The notes beneath the pieces were generated by a model that saw only the letters and a list, made by a program, of their open reading frames with translations, was not told the origin of the DNA and did not search any database. Of a DNA stretch of 64,000 nucleotides, positions 27,730 to 56,857 are shown piece after piece. The position numbers and the translations under genes are program-made. Source of the DNA: a phage. Numbering within the stretch: position 1 is the first letter of the stretch; every line of letters starts with the position of its first letter. The DNA lies in sequence record OZ346167.1; one strand, written 5' to 3'.

Positions 27730-28866
27730 TTACTCATAATCCCTAATAACTAGCCCAACAGGGAACTGTAAAGAACCCTTACGAGTCATCTTCTGGAACT
27801 GAACCGTTAAAGGTTTCCCGATAAACTCTTCAGGATGTTCAGCAAGATACTGTTTCTTCTCGTGTGTAGTTTTCCATGAAACATCTACAAAGACGTTAGG
27901 AAGAGTCTCTACAACGAACTTACCATGACCACGTTTATCAGTCTTTACACCAGTCACTTTAAACTCTTCAGTGTGCATCTTCTTGTGCTTAATCAAGAAG
28001 TATGAACGGTGACAACACTCATAGAAGGAGTCTTCAGAGATTGAGCGGTACATTGCACCTTCAAACTTAGTTTCAACCCACTTATCATGAGCTTCATCAA
28101 ACTCTTCCCAAGAATTTACACGGATAGTCTGCACAGGAACAACTCTACAGGTATCCCCAAGCTCAACAATAGGTGAGTTATCAATAACTTCACGACGCTC
28201 AGGCCAAGATTTTGAATTGTCACAGATATCATACCAGTAGAATTTAAGAAGGTGACGGTCTGGATTGTCAGCATTCTTAATCATAGATACAATATCTTCT
28301 AAGTCCCAACCATGAGCATAAATCTCACCATCAAAGTCTTCAACTTGTGGATGTAATTTAAGCAACAAAAGCAAATCTGGGATTAGTTCTGTTGGAACGT
28401 TGTAAACAGTATTCTCACGAGAATAAGCTGTGAAACTGACTGAATCAGCATCTCTTGAAATTCTACAACGGACACCATCAAGTTTTGGTTGAGCATCAGC
28501 AGGGAACTTCAGATACTTTGCATGACTAACCTTTGCAGCATCATGAGCAAGCTGTACACCTACCTTCTCAGTATTCTGTGCAGATTCTTTTGTGTAAGCA
28601 TAACCTTTACGGTCAACTTGCTTTTTATACTTAGCAGCAACTTCAAAGAGAGCTTGCTGTTCAGCGTTACGCTCATTCTTTTTACCGATGTTTTTAGGTT
28701 CTGCTGTATACTCTTCAAACATCATCTTGCCATTTTCTTTACCATAGGTTGTAATAACTTTGTCACCTACAGCAACGCATGACCAGACGTTGAAAGAGCC
28801 ATCTTTATTTTGTTTGTATAGGATTGTCATTTTATTCCTCTGAGTGATACCAAGTGTTGCAAGCAT
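27730..28866 (-). CDS. ATP-dependent DNA ligase
   Basis: adenylation motif KLDGVR plus DGEIY and EGAMYR motifs. Confidence 0.75.
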   Translation of the reverse strand: MLATLGITQRNKMTILYKQNKDGSFNVWSCVAVGDKVITTYGKENGKMMFEEYTAEPKNIGKKNERNAEQQALFEVAAKYKKQVDRKGYAYTKESAQNTEKVGVQLAHDAAKVSHAKYLKFPADAQPKLDGVRCRISRDADSVSFTAYSRENTVYNVPTELIPDLLLLLKLHPQVEDFDGEIYAHGWDLEDIVSMIKNADNPDRHLLKFYWYDICDNSKSWPERREVIDNSPIVELGDTCRVVPVQTIRVNSWEEFDEAHDKWVETKFEGAMYRSISEDSFYECCHRSYFLIKHKKMHTEEFKVTGVKTDKRGHGKFVVETLPNVFVDVSWKTTHEKKQYLAEHPEEFIGKPLTVQFQKMTRKGSLQFPVGLVIRDYE

Positions 28867-29978: not shown

Positions 29979-30545
29979 TCAAGATAGTTTTGCAAACTCT
30001 CCGTGGAGTTTAATAGCAGCTTCACAGTAAGCTTTATGGGCTTCTTCAGGTGTGTCATGGTAACCTAAAAACATCTTCTTACCTTTATAACTTATCTGTG
30101 CGACCCACTTACCAGACTTCTTCTTCAGGCTTACACCCTTATAGCCTGATTTATTGGTGGATAGTTTGCTTTTATTCCAAGCACTTTGGTAGTCATATGC
30201 TTCTCTTAAGTTTACAATCCTGTTATCAAGGGAGTCTCCATTAATATGGTCAATAACACCTTTCGGCAACCTACCATACATGTACAGCCATGCGAGTCTG
30301 TGTGCTTTATGTGCTTTCTTGTCAAAATAGATAGTAATCTGCTTATGACCAGTTGAGTCAATCTGGATGCTCCCCGCTACCTGTCCTGCGTACTGACTAT
30401 TAAAAACTTTAACAGCCTTTGAGTCGCCCTCTCTACGAAGCCAAGTAAAGACCCCTGTTTCGGGGTCATAGTGTAGTAGTTCCTTTAAACGTTCTTTTGT
30501 AATCATTTTGTCACCATTAATGCACTTCCAACCACGATTTACCAA
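29979..30545 (-). CDS. HNH homing endonuclease with AP2-type DNA-binding domain (free-standing)
   Basis: HNH core HRLAWLYMYG...IDHINGDSLDNRIVNLR; AP2-like GYKGVSLKKKSGKWVAQISYKGKKMFLGYHDTPEEAHKAY; overlaps 3' end of polymerase exon 2; paralog of 40353-40868. Confidence 0.8.
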   Translation of the reverse strand: MVNRGWKCINGDKMITKERLKELLHYDPETGVFTWLRREGDSKAVKVFNSQYAGQVAGSIQIDSTGHKQITIYFDKKAHKAHRLAWLYMYGRLPKGVIDHINGDSLDNRIVNLREAYDYQSAWNKSKLSTNKSGYKGVSLKKKSGKWVAQISYKGKKMFLGYHDTPEEAHKAYCEAAIKLHGEFAKLS

Positions 30546-31076
30546 CCTTTGCTGTACCAGTTACAAGTGTTTCTTTCCTCAAACCTAAGTTTTTTGAAGC
30601 TTGTCCATACATCCAGTCAGCAATTGCTTTCATATCATGTGTCATACCCTCTGGACATTCCCAACTATTTTCATCGTGATATGCCAGAAGTAACCTTGCT
30701 CCGATAGCTGGTTTTCGAGCATTCAGTTTTGTCAGGCCATCTTCACAGGCTTTTCTTGCTGCTAGGTTGATGGCCTCATTCTGAATCTGTGCTTCCGAAC
30801 TCATCAGGAGGTAGTTCAGTAGTTTATGTGGAGATTTGCACCATATCCATGCTCCAGCGACCCTGATATAACCACCTTTAGCAATTGAAGAATTCTTCCC
30901 AAAAACCTCTTCCAGAGCCTTTTTAGACGCCTTAAAATCGGCTTCTAAGCTATCAAGTAACTTCTTAATCTTTGGCAGACGCATATAGTAAGTTTGTTTA
31001 GTTAATGCACCTTCCTCTGTAGAAGCTGCCTTAATGGTTTTGGCAAACTTCTCATCACCTGCACCGAACAATACAT
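30517..31076 (-). CDS. DNA polymerase (family A, T7 gp5-like), exon 2 (C-terminal part)
   Basis: FGAGDEKF, SPHKLLNYLL, AYHDE (motif C) align with T7 DNA polymerase C-terminus; in-frame stop immediately upstream at 31081-31083; exact 5' boundary uncertain by a few nt. Confidence 0.8.
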
Positions 31077-31347
31077 CTGGTCAATACACTCGCAAGGTGT
31101 ACCAGTTCTCTTATGAACTTCTCCGCATTTCTACGGAGTGTCGGACTATATCACGTAGTAGTAATACTACCGTTGCACTTGGGAATGGTCATTGGCTTAC
31201 CACCCTACTCTACTCAGTTCATACGTTAAGTATGCTTTTCGATAGTCTCTGAACGTTCCTCTTAAGAGGCTTCGCTGCTGATTACCATATCTTTACAGAC
31301 TTAGGCTTCCAGCAATTCACAACGTTTTACATGCGCCACTGACGCAT
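31077..31347 (-). mobile_element. group I intron (ORF-less) in DNA polymerase motif B
   Basis: on the transcribed strand the conserved core elements P (AAUUGCUGGAAG), Q (AAUCAGCAGCG), R (GUUCAGAGACUA; + coords 31243-31252) and S (GAUAUAGUCC; 31143-31151) occur in canonical order; ends in G; splits polymerase motif B. Confidence 0.75.
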
Positions 31348-33514
31348 AAATGCCATTTTTGGCTTTCTTACGACCTTTTGTAATCTCGTGGAGAAGTTCC
31401 TCATCCTGTGTCTCCCTACAACGAACAATATCTTCTTCCTTGTTCAGACCAAAGTAAATACTGTTCAGTGTATGCGCATCAGTCCCTGTGTAGACTTCAT
31501 AGAGGTCGTTCTCAGCATCATAACGAAGATACTTGTCAGTTTCTGGATTAAGGTGCTTATCAAGATGTTTGCAATAATATCTCCCATCTTCTTGCTTGGT
31601 AAATTCTACTGACTCTTTACCTTCAGTTACTGCTTTAGTGAACTCTTTATCACCCATAAAGTTACACAGTAAAACAAGCTGTGCAGAGTTCTGGTCAACA
31701 GAAACAATGTTAGTCCCCTCTTCACAAATCCACACTGCCCTCATAGGTGCTCCATAGACAGCAGCACCAGACGGTACGTTTACAATACCATATTGTGTCA
31801 TACGTCCAGTTGAAGTACCAAACACCATTGCACCAGCACTAAGGCGACCATCAGGACGAATCTGGTTCAACCAACCTTTTTCATCATCCTTTGAGTTCTC
31901 AATAGTTCTGCGTCGGTGCATCAAAGTATAGTACTTAGCAATCTTCTGTCCAAGCTCACCTTCAATCGTATCATAAGATGATTCAGTAAGTTTTGGTGAA
32001 GTACGGATTAAGCAAGGCTCAAGCAAGTCTGTGTATTTCTTCACAGACCAGTTATGCTCAATGTACTGTACACCTTCATGTTCAACATAACTCAAACCAC
32101 ACCGCTCAACCATTTCCTGCCACTTAGGATGCTTTGTAATCATCTTTTTATTGTCTTTGAAACGACAAACTTTGACAGGGCGACCATCTGAGTCTTTCTT
32201 GTAATTCCAGTCATCTGGAATCCAACCAACTGATTTCAAGTAGTCTTTAACAACTGCTACCTGAGTCATACGAGAAACTTCAAACTCAATTGGTGTATAT
32301 GGTGCATCAATCAAACCTGTGTAGCGACTTGACTCAAGTTCAAAGTGATTAACAACGTGGCTGTTATAGTACTTCACAGTTTTGACTGTTTTTACTGGCT
32401 TCCAGTCTTTGCATTTCTTACCAATCTTTGCGTTCAACTCATTGCAAATTGCACGAGCATCCTTCATTGCTACAAATCCCTCTTTGTACTCTTCACCAGT
32501 TACAGAGTTGGTTGGTGTATAGCAATTTCTCTTTTCAATGTTAAAAATCTTTGTAGTTGGCTTACCAAATGGCTTGATTTCATATGTCTGCATCTCACCG
32601 TTACGTACCTGCTGACGATACTTTGTCTTAGGGTACTTGGTAATCCTCTTCAGCCCATCTGCATGACCGAATGCTTCAACATATTCATTCCAAGCTTTTG
32701 CAAACTCTTCTCCAGTAACTTTACCTTTGGTCTTAATAGTTGGAGGAAGATGTGGTTCAACCTCTGAAGCAAGCTCATTAGTCAACTTGTCAAGTTCCTT
32801 TACATGGAACTCCATAAGCTCTTTATCAGCTTTCCAACCATTGATAGCTTGCTGGCTCATCCAGAAAGATGTTTCTTTAGCTCGCATGTAGGTTTCATAA
32901 GTGTCTATGCCACACTTCTTAAGCTTGAGATACTCGTTATCAAGTGCCCGTTTAGTTTTGGCGTTAATACGGATATCTTCTACGACACGAGTGAAGATTT
33001 CTGCATTCCACACACCCCAATGCTCAATCTCTGGCTTACGAACACCAACACGAGCACCCCATGCAGCCAAACCATGAGCACCTTTATAACCCTTTGGAGT
33101 TGGCCTATCCATCCACTGAACACGAGACTGGATAAGAGAATCCTGAAAGAAATTACCCCACGGCTTACATTTTGGATTATCAAAGTTCCATAAATCAGGT
33201 GCAATGTGATTGAAAACCCACCAGTCATAACCGAGACCATTATGGATGCAAAGACGTTTTGCCTTTAACGCAAATTCAACACCTTCACGTAAACCACCTT
33301 TGATGTACTTAGTGTACTTGTGACCGAGGATAGGCTCATCTGTAAAGACCCATACAGGTGGCTCTTCATCGTCAGATTTATAGTCTGCAAAGGCCATTAC
33401 GTGAACTTTAGTGAACTCAAGGAGTAAACCATCAGTTTCTGTATCACCAACCAAATGTAAGTTTTTAAAATCTACGTTTTCCATTTTTACTCCCTCTAAA
33501 ATCATTAACCTCAT
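31348..33514 (-). CDS. DNA polymerase (family A, T7 gp5-like), exon 1 (3'-5' exonuclease and most of polymerase domain)
   Basis: motif A-like IVSVDQNSAQL and start of motif B RKKAKNGIY; continuous ORF ends in a stop 16 codons into the intron. Confidence 0.8.
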
Positions 33515-33741
33515 ACATTACTGCAAAAAATTATAAAAAGCAAGTTGACAATGTACTTGACAAGGTGTTAATCTTTGCGAAGTGGGTTTTTACTTAAAAG
33601 GTTACTTAACAGTTTAACTATACAGATACTTTAAAACTCTTAAAAGATTATTTAATAGCTTTTAAAAAGCTTTAAAGTATAACGTATAGAATACGTTAAG
33701 ATAAAAGATTAAAACTTAATAGTTACTTAAAAGAGGCTTAC

Positions 33742-56308: not shown

Positions 56309-56857
56309 ATGAAGAAATTGATTCTAGGTTTGTGCTTAATGTTTACAGCACACTTAGCTTATGCAGTTGACTGCCCAGAGCTATCAATTAGCCAAAAAGT
56401 AAACATGTTAAAAGCTTACCAGTATGGTGAGAATAACATGGGTAAAGGTTGGGGTATCACTCTAGCTGCTATAGCCTTACAAGAGTCAGAGTTAGGTCTG
56501 AAGGTAGAGAATAAAAAGACACACGATTATGGTATTTTCCAGAATCACTTGAAGACTGTTGTAAAGCGTAACAAAATTAGTCCTAATGTGGCTAAAAAGA
56601 AACTCTTAAAAGACTTTGACTATGCTGCAAAGGAAACGCACAAAGAACTTGAGTTTTGGACAAAGGTGCATGGTCAGCCAAAGTCAAAGAAGACTTTACA
56701 AAAAGTTTTAGCATCATATAATGCTGGGTATTCGTACAGAATCCCTAAAGCTAAGAAGTATTCTCAAGATGTCTATAACAACATGAAAGTTATTGCCCAA
56801 TGTGAATTTGCAACAAACATTTCTAAGGTAAACCATGAAAAAATTAAGAAAGTCTGA
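56309..56857 (+). CDS. secreted lytic-transglycosylase-like protein (endolysin candidate)
   Basis: signal peptide MKKLILGLCLMFTAHLAYA; AIALQESELG and DYGIFQNH resemble the SLT-domain catalytic ES and GLMQ motifs. Confidence 0.45.
   Translation: MKKLILGLCLMFTAHLAYAVDCPELSISQKVNMLKAYQYGENNMGKGWGITLAAIALQESELGLKVENKKTHDYGIFQNHLKTVVKRNKISPNVAKKKLLKDFDYAAKETHKELEFWTKVHGQPKSKKTLQKVLASYNAGYSYRIPKAKKYSQDVYNNMKVIAQCEFATNISKVNHEKIKKV

Follow-up and report, generated by a model that had tools for sequence, protein, structure and literature searches.

In the phage DNA analysed here, a 64,000-nt stretch of sequence record OZ346167.1 (the window), the family A DNA polymerase gene is interrupted by a 268-nt element that is very probably, to judge from its sequence, a mobile self-splicing group I intron, placed within the Leu722 codon in the O-helix of the polymerase. 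The window comes from a Felix O1-like phage (Felixounavirus), its polymerase region being ~96% identical to those of Felix O1-like myoviruses, with JLBYU28 and L27 among the best matches. Coordinates are those of the window throughout, in which the polymerase gene, the intron and an adjoining gene for an HNH endonuclease all lie on the minus strand. The intron, which carries no open reading frame (ORF), occupies 31074..31341 (-), from its first base C31341 to its last base G31074 (omega-G).

The minus-strand polymerase ORF stops 17 codons past ...KAKNGIY, and a second ORF picks up at LFGAGDEKF some 270 nt further on, with a stop codon (31303-31301) inside the intervening 268 nt. An earlier description made from the letters of the window without database searches (the sequence-only reading) had recognised a polymerase gene in two pieces here, and this is upheld by an exon 1 ending ...GRKKAKNGIYA, an exon 2 continuing LFGAGDEKF and the stop in between. 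Exon 1 (31342..33505, -) starts at ATG 33505, which was chosen after the annotation of homologues with a coding sequence of 2721 nt (an alternative start is ATG 33514), and its last base, U31342, is the first base of Leu codon 722. Exon 2 (30517..31073, -) opens with the UA that completes this codon, followed by LFGAGDEK..., and closes at the stop TAA 30519-30517. The predicted spliced polymerase has 906 residues and a single Pfam match, DNA_pol_A (PF00476, residues 710-903, E 1.5e-13), that crosses the junction. Across residues 517-621 of T7 DNA polymerase the spliced protein aligns without gaps, RKKAKNGIYALLFG standing opposite RDNAKTFIYGFLYG and matching T7 R518...K522...Y526...Y530, the R..K...Y...[YF]G pattern of the family A motif B O-helix. 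In this alignment the split Leu722 codon corresponds to T7 F528, a residue of the dNTP-binding helix that lies between Y526 and Y530, and the earlier suggestion that the intron splits motif B is therefore correct.

The boundaries of the intron were fixed by comparison with uninterrupted genes. Three in-frame junctions place a U before the 5' splice site and a G at the last intron base, and intron-less homologues (those of phages P219 and AYO145A and 15 further loci including Felix O1) were used to choose among them. The junction U31342|C31341 ... G31074|U31073 yields KNGIYALLFGAGDEK (NGIYALLFGAG), an exact match to all 17 homologues, and because only this splice reproduces the uninterrupted sequence the intron is 31341..31074, a phase-1 insertion that splits a Leu codon as U|UA. 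The ligated exons are thus predicted to read ...AUUUAUGCGU|UAUUGUUCGG... and the peptide spanning the junction ...NGIYALLFGAGDEK..., and the intron termini, CAGUGGCGCAUG...GACCAGAUG, are identical in all eight of the other intron-bearing loci compared. Joining 31342 to 31076 instead gives NGIYAYVLFGAG, which disagrees with the intron-less homologues and was rejected. The sequence-only reading had called the junction unfixable by eye and had assigned the intron to 31077-31347, an extent now corrected to 31074..31341; the two junctions that it had offered, 31348/31076 (NGIYVLFGAG) and 31350/31081 (NGIPDVLFGAG), are in frame but wrong by 3 to 8 nt, being contradicted by every intron-less homologue, and the second would leave an intron that does not end in G. 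The comparison with intron-less relatives that it had recommended is what settled the matter.

Its assignment of the insert to the ORF-less group I introns is borne out by the covariance-model search that it had also proposed, in which Rfam RF00028 (group I intron) matches 31121..31404 (-) over the full model (1-253) and scores 64.2 bits where the gathering threshold is 50 (E 5.8e-14, well outside what chance would give), the sole Rfam match above threshold in the entire 64 kb, as it is by the exact restoration of the frame seen in intron-less homologues and by covariation of all helices except P7. The P, Q, R and S elements that it had noticed are indeed present in order, as AAUUGCUGGAA, AAUCAGCAGC, GUUCAGAGACUA and GAUAUAGUCC. 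The Rfam alignment forces P1 and P2 onto 31404-31342, a placement that we rejected as this stretch is exon and the intron has no P2; the real P1 falls in the stretch that the alignment treats as insertion. As predicted from the sequence, P1 (31331..31347, -) is formed by exon AUGCGU (31347-31342) and the guide GCGCAU (31336-31331), U31342 and G31336 forming the wobble pair at the 5' splice site, and its loop CAGUG (31341-31337, -) is complementary to the first five bases of exon 2, UAUUG (31073-31069), allowing a P10 of 5 bp that includes two wobbles. The wobble at the 5' splice site, the terminal G and the 5-bp P10 are therefore all three present. Within the intron, on the same strand, P3 (31324-31319 / 31176-31171) encloses the elements from P4 to P7.2 within 31171..31324, namely P4 (31314-31309 / 31281-31276), P5 (31306-31304 / 31286-31284), P5a with a GUAA loop (31300-31297 / 31292-31289), P6 (CCUC-UUAA-GAGG, 31269-31266 / 31261-31258), the 5' strand of P7 (GACUAU, 31247-31242), P7.1 (31234-31230 / 31224-31220) and P7.2 (31205-31199 / 31192-31181). 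The 3' strand of P7 (AUAGUC, 31149-31144) follows P8 (31170-31165 / 31160-31155), and the 3' part of the intron is made up of P9 with a GAAA loop (31138-31132 / 31127-31121), P9.1 (31119-31115 / 31108-31104) and P9.2 (31101-31097 / 31089-31085). By the subgroup IA2 criterion of two extra hairpins, P7.1 and P7.2, that follow the 5' strand of P7 and precede the 3' strand of P3, the intron is, in its predicted structure, of the phage IA type.

A covariance model of our own, built from four Felix-type intron copies and then used to find relatives, supports this fold. In the model-fitted alignment of the relatives 93.1% of cells are paired, compared with 33-46% when the partners are slid, and 57 of the 64 pairs change on both sides, such changes being found in each helix except P7. 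P1, P7.1, P7.2 and P8 each covary in the related introns, and P9, P9.1 and P9.2 have 97.7-97.8% of cells paired with both-side changes at every pair. The P7 strands GACUAU and AUAGUC can pair and are both invariant in all real relatives, so covariation is silent for this helix. Plain MAFFT alignment of close copies also contains compensatory changes, from C-G to U-A in P6 of phage warpig and from U-A to C-G in P8 of locus L006.

In the splicing pathway that we propose, the polymerase pre-mRNA would fold so that the exon AUGCGU and the guide GCGCAU pair as P1 with the U-G wobble at the splice site. Free guanosine would then attack after U31342, the guide loop CAGUG would grip exon 2 UAUUG as P10, and the 3'-OH of exon 1 would attack past the terminal G31074, to give a ligated message for an uninterrupted 906-aa polymerase reading ...KNGIYALLFGAGDEK... 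Certain points weigh against this reading. Both splicing and endonuclease activity are matters that we infer from sequence, the covariation alignment was fitted to our own model and is biased towards its structure, making it supportive evidence and not independent, and the single-sequence minimum-free-energy fold is no better than shuffles (z = -1.22), an uninformative score that is expected of a pseudoknotted ribozyme. The same fold score, together with the absence of P2 and a minimal P1 whose 5-nt loop is closed by a wobble pair, could indicate a crippled group I intron that needs a phage or host protein, or that splices poorly and throttles polymerase synthesis; we consider this unlikely, as the core agrees with the Rfam consensus at all conserved elements, P7 is invariant with the remaining helices kept through compensatory change, and ~100 plaque-forming phage isolates have the intron in an essential gene. 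Far less probable still, indeed scarcely credible, is the view implicit in most GenBank records with the intron, which annotate two 'DNA polymerase' coding sequences, that there is no splicing and the polymerase consists of two separately translated polypeptides. In such a split gene the break would cut the O-helix between the residues that correspond to T7 Y526 and Y530, exon 2 would have to be translated from a TTG, its only in-frame start, with no clear ribosome-binding site, and a high-scoring ribozyme would stand between the pieces although its predicted splice restores the sequence of the uninterrupted homologues exactly.

The intron is patchily distributed, occurring in ~126 of roughly 260 Felix O1-like records, and it takes more than one form. 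The 268-nt ORF-less intron of the window recurs at at least 95% identity in ~100 records. In phage pEP20 (L004 3020-3821) the intron is ~800 nt long and has in its P6 loop a 160-aa ORF of Endonuclease VII type (PF02945), and the 311-nt intron of phage warpig (L003 3198-3508) equals the Endonuclease VII-bearing intron minus the ORF, deleted between two CTAA repeats, so that the sequence of the warpig copy clearly records the loss of an endonuclease gene. The window's P6 hairpin, CCUC-UUAA-GAGG, is no simple deletion product of the ORF-bearing form. Alleles of the Endonuclease VII ORF are less than 80% identical to one another within a surrounding ribozyme that is ~98% identical. Comparing the window with pEP20, the ribozyme parts are 98.7-98.9% identical and the 300 nt of exon flanking them on each side 75-79%, and overall the introns keep 97-99% identity across polymerase alleles that are 20-25% divergent. 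Because introns 97-99% identical are found in polymerase genes only 75-79% identical around the insertion, the intron evidently moves horizontally, near-identical introns in divergent genes being, on these sequences, a signature of transfer by gene conversion. At the DNA level it is thus a mobile element spread by gene conversion, as this population-level evidence shows, with co-converted flanks that are short and variable.

The immediate flanks conform to this picture. The junction reads GCGU|UAUUG in every intron-bearing allele, these being the bases that P1 and P10 need, and the intron-less alleles have GCAC|UGCUG, GCAC|UACUG or GCCC|UGUUA, apart from two with GCGU|U[GA]CUG. Intron-less DNA of type B reads ...TATGCAC|TGCTGTTCGGTGCAGGTGAT... 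at the site, and that of the Felix O1 type ...TACGCCC|TGTTATTTGGAGCCGGAGAC... Alleles with and without the intron that share a polymerase background are 92-100% identical save for a cluster of changes at the site, as in L006 against L007, where the differences cluster at roughly -23..+21 nt around the insertion, and the length of the donor-like flanking tract varies among phages. In the intron-less IMG/VR contigs L015 and L017 'exon 1' ends GCGT, as in the intron-bearing alleles, in place of the GCAC of other type B intron-less sequences, which may be a trace left by loss of the intron or by partial co-conversion. On a larger scale, polymerase sequence upstream of about -400 nt from the intron site is 94-100% identical among Felix O1-like phages, and from about -400 nt to the stop (window 30517-31750, compared with L002-L020) there are two allelic blocks, 65-85% identical. 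How these blocks are shuffled does not depend on the intron or on the clade of the neighbouring HNH gene, and they therefore mark a local hot spot of recombination or divergence around two mobile elements.

The second of these elements is a free-standing endonuclease gene just after exon 2, where the sequence-only reading had placed an HNH gene. It encodes 175 aa (29979..30506, -) with Pfam HNH_3 (E 2e-15) and AP2 (E 3.5e-12) domains, and its likely start, ATG 30506, lies 10 nt past the polymerase stop and 0.56 kb from the intron. A search of the PDB with this HNH-AP2 protein matched only plant AP2/ERF structures, through the AP2 part, and no characterised homing endonuclease. Homologues at the same slot (the window together with L001, L003, L005-L010, L015, L017, L019, L020 and L028-L031) form four clades that share no more than 54% amino-acid identity with one another, and each clade has members beside intron-bearing and members beside intron-less genes. 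We scored both elements in 44 Felix O1-like genomes taken at even steps down the ranked matches of a phage database. The HNH gene was present with all ten ORF-less introns, with two of the six ORF-containing introns (absent from four) and in ten of the 28 genomes with no intron (absent from 18), giving Fisher p = 0.0005 for ORF-less introns against all others and p = 0.008 for ORF-less against ORF-containing introns, values that ignore relatedness. It likewise accompanies 38 of 38 ORF-less copies among the matches listed, and the best 60 matches to a chimeric query designed to find an ORF-less intron lacking the HNH gene contained none. For each intron copy checked, an endonuclease gene lies either in the intron or no more than 0.6 kb away. 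As the accompanying HNH genes span four clades of at most 54% identity, the association is not that of one inherited block.

These observations suggest that the ORF-less intron may be mobilised or retained in trans by the HNH-AP2 endonuclease (collaborative homing), which we put at a little short of an even chance. The layout of such a system, an endonuclease-free intron together with a free-standing gene for an endonuclease adjoining the same host gene, is what we find in the window, and the intron, by interrupting the target of the endonuclease, would shield the genome that carries it. Several findings weigh against trans homing. L009, L010 and L019 have the HNH gene and are intron-less, and their insertion site is the same as that of HNH-less genomes within 45 nt on either side, so that at least these two HNH clades would not obviously cut there. 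In L015 and L017 the block of high similarity to the window begins at the HNH gene and stops short of the intron site, and the association may derive in part from shared ancestry and the short distance of 0.56 kb. In an attempt to map the HNH cut site from similarity breakpoints, the block at -400..+557 around the intron site proved mosaic in every comparison. The competing explanation, which we regard as a serious possibility while holding it to be rather under even, is that the HNH-AP2 protein is unrelated to the intron, an ordinary free-standing homing endonuclease whose target is close to the place where its gene is inserted, at the polymerase gene's 3' end, with the intron dragged along or left behind by recombination in this hot region and the ORF-less copies being decaying remnants of the Endonuclease VII form. 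Such hitch-hiking would account for the HNH genes beside an unmodified intron-less site in L009, L010 and L019, for a similarity block in L015 and L017 whose start is the HNH gene instead of the intron site, and for the frequency of the HNH gene without the intron (10 of 28 sampled intron-less genomes, plus Felix O1), and a derivative by ORF deletion does exist in warpig, with its 311-nt remnant of the pEP20 intron. It fits poorly, however, with the failure to find ORF-less copies without the HNH gene (0 of 10 sampled, 0 of 38 listed, none with the chimeric query), with the absence of the HNH gene beside 4 of 6 ORF-containing introns, with a link between intron and HNH gene that spans four divergent clades, and with a window P6 hairpin that simple deletion from the ORF-bearing form does not produce. 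Returning to mobilisation in trans, a more speculative extension, which we advance tentatively and think somewhat doubtful, is that Felix O1-like phages hold a full collaborative-homing series at one site. Two unrelated nuclease families, the free-standing HNH-AP2 enzymes of four divergent clades and an intron-borne enzyme of Endonuclease VII type, would have converged on the O-helix, and the ORF-less intron would persist only beside an endonuclease that carries it into empty alleles and that the intron in turn stops from cutting its own genome, making the intron the immunity half of a two-part selfish element.

The element itself is already known, though uncharacterised. The 2019 genome announcement of phage Meda noted an endonuclease-free intron in the polymerase gene, and Salmonella phage Meda (MH586731) has, like the window, a 268-nt intron with identical site and termini, in a record that joins the two polymerase pieces. 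The announcement does not go into the class of the intron, its splice sites and structure or its mobility, and the literature searched contained no published study of its class, splice sites or structure, of the gain and loss of ORFs or of the connection with the HNH gene. The genome paper on Felix O1 reports no introns (PMC3185647), in agreement with the intron-less polymerase gene, followed by an HNH gene, that we find in that phage, and the non-coding RNAs of phage SPJ41 include "two introns" (PMC9951933). AP2 domains in HNH endonucleases have been described with Felix O1 among the original examples (Magnani et al. 2004, as cited in PMC5318435), and the window gene shares with HNH-AP2 homing endonucleases the pairing of HNH_3 and AP2 domains.

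Collaborative or trans homing has been reviewed for the cyanophage S-PM2 psbA intron and F-CphI, for T3/PhiI and for T4 mobE/nrdB (PMC3984707, PMC2988022). In common with the window, these systems have a group I intron with no endonuclease, or with a dead one, in a highly conserved gene and an adjoining free-standing homing endonuclease. They differ from it in that the intron-borne endonuclease of the Felix relatives is of Endonuclease VII type (PF02945) and no homologue of the neighbouring HNH-AP2 protein, and in that four divergent HNH clades occupy one position in Felix O1-like phages, where cleavage of the insertion site by the HNH protein is putative, with mixed indirect evidence. Bonocora and Shub (2009) reportedly paired gene 5.3 of T3 with I-TslI, the enzyme of the PhiI intron, and T3 is said by them to have a free-standing HNH gene directly after its polymerase gene, as in the window. 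Phage DNA polymerase genes with group I introns are well known, examples being those of SPO1, Bastille and, among T7-like phages, PhiI and W31. The T7-like phages PhiI, W31 and K1F resemble the window in having an HNH-associated group I intron in the family A polymerase gene of an enterobacterial phage. However, K1F exon 1 ends ...AYMAWVH, at motif C, motif B (AKTFIYAFLYGAG) is intact and the HNH gene lies inside the intron. On K1F, the T7-like example examined, a shared insertion site with the T7-like polymerase intron was accordingly rejected, and the Felix intron model finds only a 31-nt P7/P9 fragment in K1F.

Related introns were found with our model, at 55-106 bits, in Pseudoalteromonas HP1, Acinetobacter P577, Staphylococcus S-CoN_Ph5, crAss-like cr3_1 and Flavobacterium Fpv2, whose P3-P8 core is 73-80% identical to that of the window but which lie in other genes or at other sites, several of them with ORFs. 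The second intron of HP1 shares with the Felix intron both the P1 hexamer AUGCGU/GCGCAU and the ...CAGAUG 3' end, although the host gene in HP1 is a different one, a helicase/primase gene. The HP1 record is unannotated, and its two related ORF-less introns (L024 1687-1992 and 2507-2754) appear to interrupt the primase/helicase region. P577 has two related introns in tandem beside an HNH gene (L027 2418-2727 and 2808-3053) and S-CoN_Ph5 has one (L026 2484-2729), in stretches for which the annotation of both phages gives only short hypothetical ORFs. In cr3_1 (L023) and Fpv2 (L025) the polymerase is annotated in two pieces, separated by an ORF and the core of a related intron; the ORF is labelled a homing endonuclease in cr3_1 and a hypothetical protein in Fpv2. 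We considered and rejected a common insertion site for these two, given that the polymerase motifs differ (Fpv2 is split between DIDV and YPS) and only the ribozyme core is related.

Taken as such the element is an ordinary though tidy mobile group I intron, and what modest interest there is comes from the genus, in which collaborative homing has a natural test bed. The idea that free-standing endonucleases mobilise and stabilise endonuclease-free introns has so far rested on few phage examples, and the genus is a convenient system in which to test it, comprising many culturable phages of E. coli and Salmonella that cover every combination of intron and endonuclease looked for except one. We found genomes with neither element, with the HNH gene only, with the ORF-less intron and the HNH gene, with an intron containing its own ORF and with or without the HNH gene, and with an ORF-deletion remnant; the combination missing from the genomes checked is an ORF-less intron with no endonuclease gene nearby. 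There is also a gain for annotation, since most of the ~100 public genomes with the intron list the polymerase as two genes, and the exact junction lets the exons be joined. A few public genomes list in addition a spurious antisense ORF inside the intron. The corresponding 72-aa ORF of the window (31034-31252, +), which our analysis placed entirely within the intron, is almost certainly spurious, and JLBYU28 has a shorter antisense ORF at the equivalent place, annotated as a hypothetical protein.

Some further observations concern the surroundings of the intron and the records that carry related sequence. A sigma-70-like promoter (TTGTCA, a 17-nt spacer and TATAAT) lies just 5' of the polymerase start at 33520-33560 (-). 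At the other end, past the HNH gene and a few small ORFs, is an ATP-dependent DNA ligase gene (27730-28866, -) with 87-99% amino-acid identity to its relatives. A candidate second intron at 56573-56765, scored by our model at 8.7 bits (E 0.35), was dismissed as noise inside an intact 182-aa ORF. Finally, Felix O1-like polymerase sequence 88-96% identical to that of the window is present in MG065664 and MG065668 ('Campylobacter phage A132/A126') and in GU169904 ('Staphylococcus phage SA1'), which suggests that these records are mislabelled or mixed assemblies.

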